A program made the translations under genes and the position numbers. The notes beneath the pieces are model-generated. The model did no database searches, was not told the DNA's origin, and saw only the letters and a program-made list of their open reading frames with translations. From assembly GCA_963700145.1 (NCBI GenBank), contig OY969474.1, positions 416,001 to 480,000 on the forward strand: 64,000 bases of DNA, read 5' to 3'. Source of the stretch: an uncultured Acidobacteriota bacterium. Lineage in GTDB: Bacteria; Acidobacteriota; Thermoanaerobaculia; Multivoradales; UBA5704. The stretch's first letter is position 1. Every line of letters starts with the position of its first letter. Below, piece after piece: positions 57,476 to 63,608 of this stretch.

Positions 57476-58003
57476 ATGCTCGCAAGCCAGAAGCTGATCG
57501 ACGCGTTCAACGGCCAGATCGGCCACGAGATGGGGGCCTCGCTCCAGTACGTGGCGCTGGCCAGCTACTTCGACGCCGAGGTGCTGCCGCAGCTCGCCCA
57601 GTTCTTCTACCGCCAGTCCGAGGAGGAGCGCGACCACGCGATGAAGTTCGTCAAGTTCATCGTCGACGTCGGCGGCCGGGTGGACATCCCCGAGATCCCG
57701 CGCGCCCGCTGCGACTTCGCCTCGGCCGAGGAGGCCGTGCAGCTCGCGGTGGACTGGGAGAAGCAGGTGACGCAGCAGATCTACGACCTGCTGGAGCTGG
57801 CGGTCAAGGAGAAGAACCACATCGCCCGCCGCTTCCTCGACTGGTTCGTCGACGAGCAGCTCGAGGAGGTGACGACGATGACGTCACTGGTCGCCATCAT
57901 CCAACGCGCCGGCAAGGAGCGCTTGATCCTCGTCGAAGACTACCTGGCCCGCGGCGGCGCCAGGAGCCTAGAGAGCCCCGCTGCGCCGGGCGGTGAGACC
58001 TAA
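57476..58003 (+). CDS. Ferritin (non-heme)
   Basis: QIGHE...[20 protein letters not shown] ferroxidase residues; GGAGGGAG upstream. Confidence 0.92.
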
Positions 58004-58062
58004 CGTCGGATGCAGCCAGGGGCCGGCAGCCCTCAGGAGCTCGTCCTGCGAGAACGAGCGGC

Positions 58063-58091
58063 TTGCAGGGCTCGCGCTTTTCGGCTATACC
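58063..58091 (+). promoter_or_regulatory. Putative retron promoter
   Basis: TTGCAG, N17, TATACC immediately before the first inverted-repeat arm. Confidence 0.45.
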
Positions 58092-58092
58092 T

Positions 58093-58241
58093 GGGGTTGG
58101 CACTTGGCGGCGAGCCCAGAATTGAGTTCTGCTGGCGATCCGTCAGCGGCTTATTGGGTGTTTAGCTTTACAGGTTCGCTGAGCGAGGCTCGGTGGGCGC
58201 GCTACAAGGTAGAATTTCGCCCGTCGCCAAGTGCTTACCCC
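58093..58241 (+). ncRNA. Retron msr/msd ncRNA
   Basis: Arms GGGGTTGGCACTTGGCGGCG (58093-58112) and CGTCGCCAAGTGCTTACCCC (58222-58241) have a perfect 10-bp core. Internal hairpins at 58117-58131, 58131-58147 and about 58178-58194. Lies directly upstream of a retron RT. Confidence 0.75.
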
Positions 58242-58281
58242 CGACTCGTCGACTTTAATCGTTGAACCTCGTGGGTTGGCC

Positions 58282-59889
58282 ATGCCTGTCTCTCTCATTG
58301 TCCCTGGACCCCCGGACGAGCTTAAGACGCGGTTCCTTACTCTCCGCACAATACGAGATGTGGCCCGCCTTTTGATGATCACTGAGGAGCATCTCAACTA
58401 TCTCGCATACTATCGACGCAAGGGGAAGTATCGCACCTTCACTGTTAAGAAGAGGCGGGGTGGCAGACGGACCTTGGCTGAACCATTCCCTCCACTTAAA
58501 CTACTGCAAAAGCGACTACTGAGCGTGCTCAGCCACGTCTATAAGCCACGATCTGCTGTGCATGGCTTCACGTCTGGCCGAAGCATCGCCAAAAATGCGC
58601 AGAAGCACGCCGGACGACGTCTCGTCCTGAACCTTGACCTTCTGGACTTTTTCCCTTCCGTAAACTTCGGGCGCGTTCGCGGCATGCTACTAGCTAAGCC
58701 GTACCTCTTGGGCGGGCCAGCTGCAACAGTGCTTGCCCAGTTGTGCTGTTACAAGAATAGCCTTCCACAGGGAGCACCGACATCGCCGATAATCTCGAAT
58801 ATGATTTGTAGAGGCCTCGATCGAGAGCTTGAGCTTCTGGCGCGAAAAGTACGATGCACGTATACCCGCTATGCGGACGACTTGACGTTCTCTACTGATG
58901 AAGCTCAATTTCGGCATGAGCTGATAGCTGATTCTCACGCGGAGCCTGTCGTACTGGGGGCAAGGCTGCGGTCTGCCATTGAGTCACATGGCTTCCAGAT
59001 CAATGAAGGGAAGATCCGAATTCAGAGTCAAGCGCAGCGGCAGGAAGTTACAGGTCTTACAGTGAACTCCAAGCCAAATGTCCAACGCCACTATATTCGC
59101 AGAACCCGCGCAATGCTGCATGCTTGGGAGAAGTATGGCCACGATGCCGCGGAGCGAGTTTTTATTGCGAACGACACGAAGGACAGGGGCCCCTATCACC
59201 AACGGCCGAAGTTCGGTCGGGTCGTTAAGGGAAGGCTAGACTTCCTGGCGATGGTCAGGGGGAACGACGATGCGGTCTATCTCAAGTTCATCAAGCAATA
59301 CGCAGCATTGAACCCTTCCTATCGACCTCTGCCCGTCGAGCAACAGCGCCCACGGCACCTTAAGACCTACCGCGACGCGATTTGGGTGCTTGAGGGCGAA
59401 AGTCAAGGAACAGCTTTCGAACTTGAAGGCTATGGGCTCATCAGCTGCGATCACGTAGTCGGCGGGCAGATGCAGGTATACCGTCCTGGTCGTCCCGAAG
59501 TACGTTATCCTGTGGAAATTCTCGCGAGAGACAGAGAGCTGGATGTCGCCGTCCTGCGTTTCGGCGGCGAGGGCGGTTTTCTCCTGAAGCGGTCGCTGGC
59601 AGGAGTAAGCCAAGGGACTCCTGTGAAGTTACTCGGATGCCCCCAGCATTCGACGGGAAGCAGCCTCTATGAGGAATTAGGGTCTGTGGCGGGTATTCGT
59701 AGACACATGCAGCAGGAGCGCATTCTGGTGACTATGAGGATCGTTGCGGGCTCCAGCGGCAGCCCAGTTATTGATTCATCTGGTAGAGTCATCGGAATCG
59801 CTGCGACTGGGGACGACAAATTCGAGGAGGAGCGAGCGGTTCAGTATGGTGTGATTCCTATCGGTACACTCGACAAGTTGGCTGTCTAG
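58282..59889 (+). CDS. Retron reverse transcriptase fused to a C-terminal trypsin-like serine protease
   Basis: RT: NAQKH (region X), DFFPS, LPQGAPTSP, YADD (58870), VTG (59047, region Y). Protease triad: CDHV, DVA, GSSGSP. Confidence 0.92.
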   Translation: MPVSLIVPGPPDELKTRFLTLRTIRDVARLLMITEEHLNYLAYYRRKGKYRTFTVKKRRGGRRTLAEPFPPLKLLQKRLLSVLSHVYKPRSAVHGFTSGRSIAKNAQKHAGRRLVLNLDLLDFFPSVNFGRVRGMLLAKPYLLGGPAATVLAQLCCYKNSLPQGAPTSPIISNMICRGLDRELELLARKVRCTYTRYADDLTFSTDEAQFRHELIADSHAEPVVLGARLRSAIESHGFQINEGKIRIQSQAQRQEVTGLTVNSKPNVQRHYIRRTRAMLHAWEKYGHDAAERVFIANDTKDRGPYHQRPKFGRVVKGRLDFLAMVRGNDDAVYLKFIKQYAALNPSYRPLPVEQQRPRHLKTYRDAIWVLEGESQGTAFELEGYGLISCDHVVGGQMQVYRPGRPEVRYPVEILARDRELDVAVLRFGGEGGFLLKRSLAGVSQGTPVKLLGCPQHSTGSSLYEELGSVAGIRRHMQQERILVTMRIVAGSSGSPVIDSSGRVIGIAATGDDKFEEERAVQYGVIPIGTLDKLAV

Positions 59890-59895
59890 GTCCCT

Positions 59896-60090
59896 ATGTC
59901 GACCAGGTTCAAGAGCGGCACACCACGCGAGTGTTCGCGCGAGGTCATCCATCTAAGCGCCTCTTACCTTCAGGCGGTAGAGCAGCTGGAGGCGCGGCCG
60001 GAGAACCAGAGCGGCGCTGACAAGACCTGGGTGGAGCGGGCGCTCCGGGAGTTCCGGGAGCACTACGCTAAAGCCGTACGGGTACGCTGA
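59896..60090 (+). CDS. Small helical hypothetical protein
   Basis: 64-aa ORF, 6 nt after the RT stop and 5 nt before the next gene; start uncertain. Confidence 0.5.
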   Translation: MSTRFKSGTPRECSREVIHLSASYLQAVEQLEARPENQSGADKTWVERALREFREHYAKAVRVR

Positions 60091-60095
60091 ACGGA

Positions 60096-60608
60096 GTGGA
60101 TCCGTTCCTTCAGCTCGTTGCTTCACTCCGCGCTTCCGGAGTGCGGTTCGTGATCATCGGGGTGGCGGGCGCGAATTACTACGCCGGCTCCGGTTCGACC
60201 CTCTTCGTCACCCAGGACCGTGATCTCCTGCTTCCTCTCGATCCGGACAACCTCCTGCGCGCTTGGCAGTGCTGCCGCGACTCCGGACTGAACCTGTGGG
60301 GGGATGACGAGCCGCTCGGTGATCCGCTCGACCTCGACTTCGCCCGACGCGTCGTGGAACGCCGGGCCGCTACGCGAGCAACCGACGCCTACGGTCTGGA
60401 GATCGATCTCACCCCTGTGATGGCTGGCTTCACCTTCGAGGAGGTCTGGAGCGAGCGGCGGACTTTCCTGGTCGAGGGAGTCGAGATCCCGGTGGCCCGT
60501 GTCAAGCACATTGTGCAGTCCAAAGCGGCGGCAGGGCGCGACAAGGATCGCCTCTTCCTTGCCACGCACGAGGAACGGCTGCGAGCTCTAATGGACGACG
60601 ATGGCTGA
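60096..60608 (+). CDS. Pol-beta-fold nucleotidyltransferase (DUF6036-like)
   Basis: FVIIGVAG, TQDRD, IDL, SKAAAGRDKD. Confidence 0.75.
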   Translation: MDPFLQLVASLRASGVRFVIIGVAGANYYAGSGSTLFVTQDRDLLLPLDPDNLLRAWQCCRDSGLNLWGDDEPLGDPLDLDFARRVVERRAATRATDAYGLEIDLTPVMAGFTFEEVWSERRTFLVEGVEIPVARVKHIVQSKAAAGRDKDRLFLATHEERLRALMDDDG

Positions 60609-60661
60609 GTAAGCCGCCGTGGACAGCGTCAGCGAGCTGGCGAAGAGGTAAGGAGCTCGCT

Positions 60662-60901
60662 CTATACGGCGACGCGCACGTGCTCGCGCAGGAACTCGGG
60701 CGCGAAGTCCGCACCGTTCTCCCAGGCCAGGGTGTGGTACGCGAGCGTGAACTGCTTGAACAGCTCGATGTCACGGAGGGGACCGAAGACCGGCCCCTCG
60801 AGCTCGGCGCTCAGGTCTACCTCGCCGCAGGTGCCGTCGTTGAACCGCAGCCAGACCGTGTAGTCGCGAACGTAGTGGGCATCTTCTACGTGCAGGAACA
60901 T
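60662..60901 (-). CDS. DUF2442 family protein
   Basis: LRFNDG...VDL...GPVFGPL...TLAWENGADFAPEFL. Confidence 0.85.
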   Translation of the reverse strand: MFLHVEDAHYVRDYTVWLRFNDGTCGEVDLSAELEGPVFGPLRDIELFKQFTLAYHTLAWENGADFAPEFLREHVRVAV

Positions 60902-60963
60902 TCTCTACTCCAGCGACGCGATGGGTCGAGGGAAAGCCTCTGCTGGCGAACTACCGCTGAAGC

Positions 60964-61344
60964 TCAGAGCCGATGCGCTCCGTCCAGCTTCCCAAGGTCG
61001 CGGTCGAACGTGCCGAGCGGCAGGTGGCCCGCTTTGCGGGCGATTTCCAGGACCAAGCAGTCAGAGAATCCCAGCGCCGGCCTCCTCCGATAGTGCGCGA
61101 GCGCCGCTGTGACGGCGTCGGCATCCTGGAGTGTCAGGTCGTTATGATCGAGGAACATCTCGACTGCAGTTCCGATCTCCGCGGTGCCCAGCCCGTAGGT
61201 GGTCGAGAGTACCCAGATCGTTTCCGCGAGCACGAGGTGGGAGACCCAGGCCCCCTTGGCGACGAATTCCTCCGCCGCGGCCATCTGCTTGGCATCGTCG
61301 GCCGTGGCGAGGCGGACCAGGACATTGGTGTCAACGGCGCGCAT
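60964..61344 (-). CDS. vapC: PIN-domain toxin (VapC)
   Basis: VDTNVLVR, LAETIWVL, FSDCL, TFD. Confidence 0.9.
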   Translation of the reverse strand: MRAVDTNVLVRLATADDAKQMAAAEEFVAKGAWVSHLVLAETIWVLSTTYGLGTAEIGTAVEMFLDHNDLTLQDADAVTAALAHYRRRPALGFSDCLVLEIARKAGHLPLGTFDRDLGKLDGAHRL

Positions 61345-61594
61345 GCCGCTTCCGCACGTACTGCCGGATTCCCTCCTTGAGCTCTTCGAGGCTCCGCGGC
61401 GGCGGCGGGCCGTCAGGGAACAGGGCCGCGTGGATATCTTCGAAGGTGTAGCGCCCCGACCGGCGCACCACGACCGCGTCCCCCTCTTCATCCCATTCGA
61501 GGACGGAGCCCGGGCCGACTCCGAGCTTGCGGCGGACCTCGGCCGGAACGGATATCTGCCCCTGTGCGGTGAGCTTTGAACGCGCGAGTGCCAT
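61331..61594 (-). CDS. AbrB/MazE-type antitoxin (VapB)
   Basis: LTAQGQISVPAEVRRKLGV; overlaps the toxin start. Confidence 0.9.
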   Translation of the reverse strand: MALARSKLTAQGQISVPAEVRRKLGVGPGSVLEWDEEGDAVVVRRSGRYTFEDIHAALFPDGPPPPRSLEELKEGIRQYVRKRHARR

Positions 61595-61657
61595 ACCCTC
61601 TACATTACCACGGTAATGAAAGAGCCGTCAGGCGTCTAGAACGGCCGCCGCGACGGT

Positions 61658-62188
61658 TCAGCGGCAGTTGCGGCCGTACGTGCGGACGTGCACGTCGAGG
61701 GTGCCGGCGCGGTCTTTTTCCAAGAGCGCTTCGAGGAGCGGGTAGGTGTCGGGGGACTTCTCGGCCTTGAGCGCCTGGTAGGCCCGCAACGTGCCCTGGA
61801 GACCGGCGACTAAGGTCTCGGTCTGGCCGGGGCCCGTGCCGGGGTTCTGGATGAGGTAGGCGGCCCCCGAATAGGCGTGCTGCATCGTCAGGTCGCGGGG
61901 CAGCTCCTTGGTCACCGCCTCCTTGGTCGTGCCGAAGAGGCTCAGGCAGTACTTGACCGTTAGGTCGGGGATCTCGCCGAGCCAGGTGTCCAGCCACTGC
62001 CGGGCCTGCGCCGCTTCCGGGGAGGCGGGCGCGGTCTCGAGGACGCGCACCAGCTCGACCGCCTTGGCGCGCTCTTCAGGGGTGGAGGGACCGCGCTTCG
62101 CCGGGGGTTGCGCCGTCGCCGGCGCCGCGGAAAGGAGGAGGAGTGTAAGGACGGAGGCTAGGAGCGAGAGCTTCGCGGGATGCATCAT
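61658..62188 (-). CDS. Secreted hypothetical protein
   Basis: Sec signal peptide ending ATA-Q; helical mature region. Confidence 0.7.
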   Translation of the reverse strand: MMHPAKLSLLASVLTLLLLSAAPATAQPPAKRGPSTPEERAKAVELVRVLETAPASPEAAQARQWLDTWLGEIPDLTVKYCLSLFGTTKEAVTKELPRDLTMQHAYSGAAYLIQNPGTGPGQTETLVAGLQGTLRAYQALKAEKSPDTYPLLEALLEKDRAGTLDVHVRTYGRNCR

Positions 62189-62197
62189 CCCCCAAGC

Positions 62198-63535
62198 CTA
62201 CCATCCGACCCGCGCCACCACGAGCGTCAGGTCGTCCGGCTGCTCGACGTCGCCCTTGAAGTTGGCGACGCTGTTGAGGAGGGCGTCGCGCACCTGGCGG
62301 GCGGAGCCGGCGTTCAGGGCGCGCCGCAGCGACCGCGCCACGCGCTCGGCGCCGTAGTGCTCGCCGTGGCGGTCGAGCACCTCCGGCAGGCCGTCGCTGT
62401 AGAAGAGGAGCAGGTCGCCGGGGGCGAGCCCCACCATCTGCTCGCGCGGCTCCGCGCCCAGCCGCGTGCCGAGCGGCAGACTGCTCGAGCCGAGCTCCGT
62501 CACCTCGCCGGTCGCCGCCGCGCAGTGGAGGGCCGGAGGGTGGCCGGCGCTGGCCACCGTCACCCGGCGCTCGGCGGCGTCCACGATCCCGACCTGCAGC
62601 GTCACCAGCATCCGCTTGGGGCCGGCCTCGCGCACCATGCGGTCGAGCCGCGCCAGGACCGGCAGCGGGGCGCACAGCTCCTCGCGCAGCATGTAGAGGC
62701 AGCTGCGCACGCCGTAGAGCATGAGACCGCTCGCCACCCCGTGCCCGGCGACGTCGCCGACGACGATCGCCAGGCAATCGCCGTCGAGCTTGAAGAAGTC
62801 GAAGTAATCGCCGCCCACCTCCTTGGCCGGCAGCGAGACGCTCGCCAGGTCGAGCCACGGCAGCTCGGGCGCGCTGCGCGGCAGGATCGAAAGCTGGATC
62901 TTGCGCGCGTCGTCGATCTCGCCGCGCAGCCGCGAGCGCTCGCGCTCGCGCAGCGACAGCATGCGCCAGGCCTCGAGGAAGCGGCGGCGGCGGGAGCGGG
63001 TGACCGCGACGGCGATCGCCGCGCTGAGCAGGTTGGCGACGGCCACCCCCGCCATCGCCTGCAGGCTCACCGCCTCGGTCCACAGGAGGCCCAGACCGAG
63101 CGGGCTGGTGACCGCGGCGCAGACGAAGAAGAGGAAGCCCAGGAGGACGTGCTCCTTGGGGCGCAGGCGGAAGCCGATCGCCAGCAGCGGGAAGGCCAGG
63201 GCGCTGATGAAGAGGGTGTTGGCCGGCCCCTCCAGGTAGAGCGACAGCGCCAGGCACTGGAAGGCGACGAACGGGATCATCAGCGAGCGGAAGTTGCTCT
63301 CGACGAAGCGCGTGTTGCGGGCCAGGAAGAGGGCGCTGATGAGGACCAGGTTGACCAGCGACATGCCGGTCGCCAGGTCGCGCTCCTCGTAGAACTCGAC
63401 CGTCCCCGCCGCCGCGAACGGCGCGAAGACCAGGAGGAGCCAGCGCAGGTAGACCCAGTTGCGGCCGTCGAAGTGCTTCTGGAGCGCCTGCTCCTGCGGC
63501 AGCAGGATCAGCTCGTCCAGGGTGAAGGGGCGCAT
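62198..63535 (-). CDS. Membrane-bound PP2C/SpoIIE (RsbU-like) phosphatase
   Basis: N-terminal transmembrane helices; VGGDY, GDVAGHG, YSDG, DDLT. Confidence 0.92.
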   Translation of the reverse strand: MRPFTLDELILLPQEQALQKHFDGRNWVYLRWLLLVFAPFAAAGTVEFYEERDLATGMSLVNLVLISALFLARNTRFVESNFRSLMIPFVAFQCLALSLYLEGPANTLFISALAFPLLAIGFRLRPKEHVLLGFLFFVCAAVTSPLGLGLLWTEAVSLQAMAGVAVANLLSAAIAVAVTRSRRRRFLEAWRMLSLRERERSRLRGEIDDARKIQLSILPRSAPELPWLDLASVSLPAKEVGGDYFDFFKLDGDCLAIVVGDVAGHGVASGLMLYGVRSCLYMLREELCAPLPVLARLDRMVREAGPKRMLVTLQVGIVDAAERRVTVASAGHPPALHCAAATGEVTELGSSSLPLGTRLGAEPREQMVGLAPGDLLLFYSDGLPEVLDRHGEHYGAERVARSLRRALNAGSARQVRDALLNSVANFKGDVEQPDDLTLVVARVGW

Positions 63536-63608
63536 GGGGGGGTCGGCGGCAGGCGGAGCGGGCGGAGTCTACCGGAAGCCGCCGCGGCGGATTAGGATGC
63601 CGCCGCTC

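Follow-up and report, generated by a model that had tools for sequence, protein, structure and literature searches.

A stretch of 64,000 nt of DNA from an uncultured Acidobacteriota bacterium (hereafter the window, with positions counted from its first letter) almost certainly carries a canonical, intact type XI retron. From its sequence, it appears to be a self-contained two-part module, comprising a gene coding for a reverse transcriptase (RT) in fusion with a trypsin-like serine protease and, just upstream, a noncoding RNA (ncRNA) of the msr/msd type. The initial annotation of the locus had given the class as type XI, which matches Mestre et al. (2020) and the PADLOC type XI models, RT-Protease_XI (PDLC02959/02960), by which the class is already detected automatically. 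The locus therefore adds to a catalogued class, and what is new is modest: an RNA model common to types XI and XII, to a subgroup of RT-Toprim fusions and to several unlisted effector fusions.

The fusion gene codes for a retron reverse transcriptase and a serine protease

The reading frame of the fusion gene starts either at GTG 58231, which lies inside the downstream repeat (a2) of the ncRNA, or at ATG 58282, the start favored by the alignment of relatives. In the deduced product, P0001, Pfam recognized RVT_1 in residues 56–261 (E 2.4e-18) and Trypsin_2 in residues 376–506 (E 1.3e-16). The PADLOC model RT-Protease_XI matched P0001 with 554 bits (E 7.7e-167), aligning residues 16–533 with positions 3–507 of the 510 in the profile; the match thus spans the full length, with no architectural difference from type XI retrons. 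Models RT-TIR_XII (442 bits, residues 15–349) and RT-Toprim_I-C (363 bits, residues 25–374 at most) aligned with the RT part alone, and the PADLOC matches of P0001 among the top 25 listed were all to retron RT models. Pfam did not identify a C-terminal TIR domain in P0001, which argues against type XII, and the reach of the I-C models, limited to the RT part, leaves no C-terminal Toprim domain, which argues against type I-C. In the NCBIfam scan every model stayed below its own cut-off, including retron_Ec67_fus (339 bits, cut-off 450) and the retron TIR model (374 bits, cut-off 600).

The RT motifs reported in the initial annotation, NAxxH (here NAQKH), VTG and YADD, are all present, and so is the in-frame trypsin-like domain with a complete catalytic triad. 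When 21 full-length RT-protease proteins were aligned, RT residues N105, H109, A198, D199, D200, V256, T257 and G258, as well as protease residues H391, D421, S492, G490, G493 and P495, were invariant (21/21). The 120 best database relatives of P0001 all contain both RVT_1 and Trypsin_2; the nearest protein among 5.8 billion is 65 % identical to P0001 and the next ones 50 % at most. There is a single RT-protease gene in the genome containing the window.

Two other kinds of RT were considered and rejected. A group II intron RT is contradicted by the low score with TIGR04416 (45.7 bits, cut-off 300) and by the lack of any Rfam intron family in positions 57800–60300, and an RT of the defense-associated type (DRT; unknown group/abortive infection, UG/Abi) by the scores with Drt2 (30.4 bits, cut-off 390) and Drt3a (20.5 bits, cut-off 200). 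A grouping with non-retron RTs, which the initial annotation had named among the outcomes that would speak against a retron, was hence not found: the highest scores of the RT were with retron models, and those with the models of group II introns and DRTs stayed well under the cut-offs.

An AlphaFold2 model of P0001, built from the 21-protein alignment, had a mean predicted local distance difference test score (pLDDT) of 86.6 and a predicted template modeling score (pTM) of 0.64, its lowest-confidence part being the linker at residues 351–359 (pLDDT <50). The solved chain closest to it in sequence is that of the Retron Ec67 protein (E 6.4e-61, residues 25–286), and a Foldseek search with the N-terminal part likewise identified retron Eco2/Ec67, in its cryo-EM structures (E 2e-28, 34–37 % identity). 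The C-terminal part was similar to DegQ, MucD, DegS, DegP, HtrA1, HtrA and Rv3671c (E ~1e-10), with a root-mean-square deviation of 3.2–3.9 Å across ~190 columns. The protease shares with these HtrA/Deg enzymes (S1C: DegS, DegQ, DegP, MucD, HtrA1, Rv3671c/MarP) the chymotrypsin fold and the His-Asp-Ser order, but differs from them in being fused to an RT, without a signal peptide or a periplasmic context, and without a PDZ domain: Pfam did not match one in P0001, which stops 29 residues past the Trypsin_2 match. Likeness in sequence is marginal (NCBIfam MarP_fam_protase, 28.8 bits, cut-off 250) and, as modeled, the protease is HtrA-like in fold alone.

A conserved msr/msd-type ncRNA precedes the gene

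Upstream of the gene, the initial annotation had described a region of ~150 nt closed by a1/a2-type inverted repeats with internal hairpins, a description borne out by covariance models and stem controls. The two arms, of 23 nt and 83 % complementary, are separated by 103 nt and span 149 nt end to end. The fold of positions 58040–58290 had a z of -3.08, and one of 200 shuffled sequences folded equally well. An Rfam scan of positions 57800–60300, with E up to 10, returned three matches at chance level, none of them to a retron or intron family.

For comparison we drew 28 loci from contigs of genomes and, out of 337 confirmed loci on metagenome contigs, the best 80, and examined the DNA upstream of the gene in the window and in 22 RT-protease loci with upstream DNA (n = 23). 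In 22 of the 23 loci, the long-range inverted repeat with the best score bracketed one and the same interval, situated just upstream of the RT; in L001 it was the second best. The arms, of 10–24 bp and enclosing 103–152 nt, were all different in sequence, whereas the stretches between them have in common ATT(G), a hairpin whose loop reads G-AUC-C, the sequence GCUUUAC, and UAAGnnGAAU before a2. RNAalifold did not predict any pairs on a MAFFT alignment (A4), and so the structure was written by hand from these visible motifs and tested by pair counting. Covariance model R1, with 21 pairs, was built from the 22 RT-protease loci, and the broader model R2 from 82 matches, the window being excluded from both.

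Over both strands of the 64 kb, R1 had a single match (58113–58225, plus strand; 27.7 bits, E 3.2e-5), which covered the full model. R2 identified the same element (58113–58224; 30.9 bits, E 4.7e-6) and, across the 5.46-Mb genome at E<=1, it gave exactly one match, the window element (E 4e-4). The covariance model from homologous upstream regions that the initial annotation had called for thus singles out this element in both window and genome. We also applied R1 to 86 further RT relatives that had not contributed to the model, with matches in 63 of them at E<0.01 and in 68 at E<0.1, all on the plus strand and just upstream of the RT. There were 18 relatives without a match, 11 of which have <140 nt of upstream DNA on their contig. 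R1 also reached a divergent type XI locus of Pseudoalteromonas (L124), with 13.2 bits (E 0.04) and in the right place.

Pairing was then counted in 85 matches aligned by fitting to R1. Standard pairs occupied 83.2 % of cells, compared to 73.4 % when the 3′ letters were shuffled (none of 500 shuffles was as high) and to 37–46 % when partners were slid by 1–3 columns. Compensatory changes were seen in 18 of the 21 pairs. All these counts were made on an alignment fitted to the model and are, for that reason, biased in its favor. The inner ATT/AAT helix (helix 1) was paired in 86.7 % of cells, with covariation in its two outer pairs, and the msr hairpin (helix 2) in 88.6 %, with compensatory changes in eight of nine pairs; the columns of the msr loop were kept in 74–83 of the 85 sequences. 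The window element retains 18 of the 23 columns conserved in >=80 % of sequences.

The outer a1/a2 stem was evaluated separately, against shuffled sequences and against a displaced control, taken 600 nt away within the gene (pairing arms across loci was unusable as a control, because of near-identical loci). Its score was 31 in the window, with a median of 23 for arms from the same locus, compared to medians of 10.5 in shuffles (99th percentile 16.5) and of 10 in the displaced control (maximum 16). The stem exceeded the 99th percentile of the shuffles in 78 of 84 loci; the inverted repeats are therefore conserved in homologues, as anticipated, in position and not in sequence. Together, these comparisons indicate that the upstream element of the window is, at the sequence level, an msr/msd-type ncRNA conserved in homologues.

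Several observations weigh against this interpretation. With 27.7 bits, the window element ranks 79 of 85 and is among the weakest members of the family, and its msd is unusually short, with 46 nt (rank 4 of 85) where the median of the family is 66. The unconstrained minimum free energy fold (-77.1 kcal/mol) contains an extended msr hairpin, and the fold with the inner ATT/AAT helix imposed is less favorable (-71.9 kcal/mol). R1 had no match across the whole genome at E<=0.001, because the window element scores just 27.7 bits; this was resolved by the broader R2. Since a G follows the inner helix in just 64 of the 85 sequences, the branching G was not placed, its predicted candidates being G58119 and G58124. 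Lastly, the 'plausible promoter' of the initial annotation, TTGCAG-17-TATACC, was not confirmed: it agrees with the consensus in 7 of 12 positions, equal to the shuffle median, and was not listed by a consensus scan. At the level of the family, positions -15 to -6 relative to a1 are AT-rich, and promoter-like sequences with >=9/12 matches precede a1 in 29 of 77 loci, compared to 114 of 1540 shuffles.

In one relative the ncRNA is not directly before the RT. In a Dehalococcoidia locus (L014), coding for a stand-alone RT of 345 aa with no fused effector, the ncRNA match (L014:2463–2599) is situated ~380 nt upstream of the RT start (~L014:2983), a distance that could accommodate a small intervening gene.

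Table 1. Features of the retron and its cassette in the window (strand as in the window; residue numbers refer to P0001).
Feature	Position	Strand	Basis or remark
Retron cassette, low GC; insertion/deletion difference from same-genus genomes	57989–59964		Genome comparison, GC profile
Promoter-like TTGCAG-17-TATACC (weak, unconfirmed)	58063–58091	+	Consensus match count
a1 arm, outer inverted repeat	58093–58115	+	Strongest inverted repeat near the gene
Conserved ncRNA core (msr/msd)	58113–58225	+	Covariance models built without the window
Inner helix strand GAATT, then G58124	58119–58124	+	Helix 1; pairs with AATTT 58213–58217
msr hairpin CTGCTGGCG-ATC-CGTCAGCGG	58129–58149	+	Helix 2; family G-AUC-C loop
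Predicted msd (template) region	58165–58212	+	Helices 3 and 4; extent of the multicopy single-stranded DNA inferred
msd base helix GCUUU / AAGGU	58165–58169 / 58206–58210	+	Surrounds a short inner hairpin
a2 arm, outer inverted repeat	58219–58241	+	Strongest inverted repeat near the gene; ends 40 nt before ATG
RT-protease fusion gene	58282–59889	+	List of open reading frames, alignment, Pfam, PADLOC; ATG start, 535 aa (P0001)
Reverse transcriptase domain	58447–59064 (residues 56–261)	+	Pfam, PDB sequence match, Foldseek
NAQKH (NAxxH motif)	58594–58608 (residues 105–109)	+	Read from the translation
YADD	58870–58881 (residues 197–200)	+	Read from the translation
VTG	59047–59055 (residues 256–258)	+	Read from the translation
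Trypsin-like (HtrA/Deg-like, no PDZ) serine protease domain	59407–59799	+	Pfam Trypsin_2, triad, Foldseek
His391 (CDHV)	59452–59454	+	Catalytic triad
Asp421 (DVA)	59542–59544	+	Catalytic triad
Ser492 (GSSGSP)	59755–59757	+	Catalytic triad

The RT-ncRNA module is found with different effectors

The C-terminal part was readable in 79 relatives. It was Toprim-like in 38 of them (as verified for a subset with the PADLOC RT-Toprim_I-C models 02965/02968), a Trypsin_2 protease in 20, a TIR domain in six, a pP_pnuc_1 nuclease-like domain in two (L052, L082) and a caspase (Peptidase_C14) in one (L093); seven relatives (L060, L064, L072, L074, L104, L105, L111) have an unannotated domain of ~178 aa and the other five have short or unmatched C-terminal parts. 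Type XII (RT-TIR) and the RT-Toprim subgroup of models PDLC02965/02968 have RTs 44–52 % identical to that of the window and the same upstream ncRNA family, and differ from it in their C-terminal effector domain. In a quick RT tree, with weak support for the deep branches, the protease-fused RTs did not form one group and there were 13 changes of effector label, at least two of them forced by well-supported branches; the window grouped with L041, L080, L055 and L065 (Shimodaira–Hasegawa-like approximate likelihood ratio test, SH-aLRT, 89). As far as can be judged from these sequences, this shows that the RT-ncRNA module exchanges effectors.

It is possible, if somewhat doubtful, that a single ncRNA family, defined by the a1/a2 arms, the inner ATT/AAT helix, the G-AUC-C hairpin and a GCUUUAC...UAAG msd base, represents one previously unmodeled RNA-RT chassis for type XI, type XII and a large RT-Toprim subgroup, as well as for the caspase-like, pPIWI-associated-nuclease-like and ~178-aa-domain fusions, in which gating by multicopy single-stranded DNA (msDNA) would be independent of the effector attached.

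Some of the individual fusions deserve a description of their own. The L093 gene (L093:2501–4378, plus strand) joins in one frame a same-clade RT and a caspase (Peptidase_C14, E 4e-28; PADLOC caspase, E 9e-26), a second and unrelated protease type on the same chassis, which is absent from the 13 retron types as given in the available text of Mestre et al. (2020); a weak match of the same ncRNA model (L093:2291–2450; 20.7 bits, E 0.014) is situated upstream of it. Genes L052:589–2181 and L082:581–2173 code for RTs of the clade fused to pP_pnuc_1, a predicted pPIWI-associating nuclease (E 4e-22 and 8e-20, respectively); L082 has an upstream ncRNA match of 26.5 bits and L052 has none. The ~178-aa domain, which stands where the effector does in this RT-ncRNA chassis, had no Pfam or PADLOC match; it is 45–71 % identical among L060, L072, L074, L104, L105 and L111, and 25–32 % identical between these and L064. 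Additionally, the RT or RT-protease frame is broken by stops or frameshifts in several of the relatives taken from genomes (L006, L024, L026, L028 and L013), which could be due to real decay or to errors in the assembly of metagenome-assembled genomes from long reads.

The retron is part of a cassette of low GC content

The retron is contained in a cassette of 1976 nt with a GC content of ~0.55 (0.53–0.58 across 58200–60000), compared to ~0.70 in the flanks, in keeping with the difference in GC noted in the initial annotation. The cassette is absent from all four same-genus genomes examined (G001–G004), and hence present in one of five genomes of the genus, even though the trxB-ferritin flank is 85–97 % identical and the distal flank 78–94 % identical in these genomes. 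In G004, 82 nt replace window positions 57989–59964, between flanks that are 93–97 % identical over long stretches. A search for the cassette interval in 20 relatives did not retrieve it among the matches listed, which were the strongest (a further 33, weaker, fell outside the list), and no target-site duplication was found at the cassette borders, which contain just a 7-nt chance repeat. Genome comparison and composition thus point to a cassette that is horizontally and recently acquired.

The upstream neighbor is a ferritin gene (57476–58003), and downstream there are, in this order, two small open reading frames (ORFs), a DUF2442 gene, a PIN/MazE toxin-antitoxin pair and a gene for a SpoIIE-type phosphatase. 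With PADLOC, the neighboring ORFs did not match any defense model, giving just a marginal antitoxin match, and no neighbor ORF was common to the 23 type XI loci. The lack of a common neighbor fits the PADLOC description of the system as 'single gene' and a cassette that moves between contexts.

The interval from ferritin to the SpoIIE-type phosphatase (57989–63600) is a variable spot in the genus, with the retron in the window's genome alone: in G003, ferritin is followed by the PIN/MazE pair after a gap of ~28 nt, and G001 lacks the toxin-antitoxin genes as well as the retron. A 64-aa ORF (59896–60090, plus strand) starts 7 nt past the retron stop codon. The C-terminal two thirds of its product are conserved in G004, with 85 % DNA identity from position 59965; its first ~23 codons are inside the cassette, and so the ORF either has a chimeric N-terminus or in fact begins further downstream. 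Neither this ORF nor the one of 170 aa that follows (60096–60608) had a match in the family and PADLOC scans.

Relation to known retrons

In the available text of Mestre et al. (2020, NAR, PMC7736814), type XI is defined by the fusion of a clade-8 RT with a trypsin-like protease and is characterized as 'lacking recognizable ncRNA modules', whereas an ncRNA is identified here in the window. In the accessible parts of Khan et al. (2024), several type XI retrons were synthesized and the ncRNAs validated by RT-DNA production include 'clade 8, type XI'. Of these retrons, their Supplemental Table 1 gives terminals 1143, 1163 and 1235 with an RT-DNA vector, and 1168 with just a human vector. The available text of Toro (2026, September) gives types XI and XII without a covariance model, and de novo RNA candidates for two protease-less type XI-like lineages only. 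As described there, these lineages belong to a related RT clade and have candidate a1/a2-type ncRNAs upstream of the RT, but they lack the protease and have separate WYL or DnaB_C accessory genes; by comparison with that description, the window retron is the canonical fused form.

The nearest solved relative is Eco2/Ec67 (type I-C1; PDB 9lm3, 9i2f, 9s1f), which belongs to the same RT clade and likewise has RT and effector in a single polypeptide, with an upstream ncRNA. The layout of an Escherichia coli Ec67-family locus is also similar: a1 is followed by ATTTG and by a hairpin whose loop contains ATC, and TAAG precedes a2. The effectors differ, being a Toprim RNase in Eco2 and a protease in the window. 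In the accounts of Eco2 available, msDNA serves as the scaffold of a trimer in which the fused Toprim is caged; once the phage protein DenB has initiated decay of the msDNA, the nuclease is released and cleaves tRNA. Both the cage and its trigger are demonstrated for Eco2.

Proposed mechanism and alternatives

By analogy with Eco2, we propose that msDNA keeps the protease off until a phage factor damages or binds the msDNA, whereupon proteolysis would abort the infection, a mechanism to which we give about an even chance. A single transcript would contain a1, the msr hairpin, msd and a2 (58093–58241), followed by the RT-protease gene. The RT would bind its own ncRNA, prime from the 2′-OH of a G at the inner end of the a1/a2 helix (G58119 or G58124) and copy the ~50-nt msd (58165–58212) into msDNA. 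The resulting particle of msDNA and RT-protease, probably an oligomer, would hold the protease in inactive standby until a phage factor degraded, modified or sequestered the msDNA, and the freed protease would then cut essential host and/or phage proteins. The sole support for this gating is the analogy with Eco2, whose RT belongs to this clade and whose RT and effector likewise form one polypeptide. Set against it, R1 had no meaningful match in the Ec67-family loci L123 (E. coli) and L125 (Rhizobium), the best one having 11.1 bits and being in the wrong place or strand, so that the analogy is one of protein and not of RNA; moreover, literature searches did not find any functional study, of defense or of protease activity, for an RT-protease retron.

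The same retron might act without sacrificing the cell, its protease being a direct antiviral that cuts one or a few phage proteins (e.g. capsid, scaffold or anti-defense proteins) while the host survives. We consider this unlikely. The HtrA/Deg family, to which the modeled protease domain is similar, has members with narrow and regulated substrate choice, such as DegS, and among the 23 type XI loci there is no conserved partner gene that could provide a host-encoded pro-toxin. Nevertheless, studied retrons generally act by abortive infection or growth arrest, no phage substrate is indicated by the sequence, and the mechanism of Eco2, in the accounts available, shuts down RNA and translation. 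It is more improbable still that the protease acts in cis, processing the fusion itself by separating RT and protease or by trimming the linker, for maturation or turnover, and is not a cell-harming effector. Retroelements are known in which a polyprotein is processed by a protease fused to it, and the low-confidence linker in the model could be an exposed cleavage site. In relatives, however, the position of the protease is filled by Toprim, TIR, caspase or nuclease-like domains; Toprim is the demonstrated effector in Eco2 and the other swapped domains are typical immune effectors, suggesting that this position behaves as an effector slot.

Two further explanations concern whether the locus works as a retron at all. 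An intact but silent or non-functional cargo, that is, poorly expressed foreign DNA not yet degraded, would agree with the weak promoter match (7/12), with a GC content 15 points below that of the host and with the presence of the cassette in one of five genomes of the genus. A dead element would be expected to carry frameshifts, as in L006, L024, L026 and L028, whereas here the ORF is open, all catalytic and retron-specific residues are intact and the ncRNA retains 18 of 23 highly conserved columns, which leaves this explanation with a small probability, similar to that of processing in cis. Far less probable than any of these is that the upstream structure is a cis-regulatory leader (an attenuator or a translational operator) and not a template for reverse transcription. 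Its position in the 5′ leader, with a2 ending 40 nt before the ATG and overlapping the alternative GTG, is what one would expect of a leader, but its geometry is that of a retron, with long, sequence-variable a1/a2 arms around an msr hairpin and a stem of variable length; besides, the RT has the retron-specific NAxxH and VTG motifs, and validated type XI ncRNAs are reported in the accessible parts of Khan et al. (2024).

Significance

Type XI retrons occur widely among environmental bacteria, and the window locus is a clean, intact and compact example of them, with defined cassette borders. The analysis at the level of the family provides an RNA model that can be tested and that predicts the place to which the msDNA should map. 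If the chassis is indeed shared, msDNA gating would be independent of the attached effector, and it would operate as a steric cage of the Eco2 type that closes an HtrA-like protease and opens when phage nucleases attack the msDNA. A protease gated by a nucleic acid, if true, would represent a new output of immunity and possibly also a tool.

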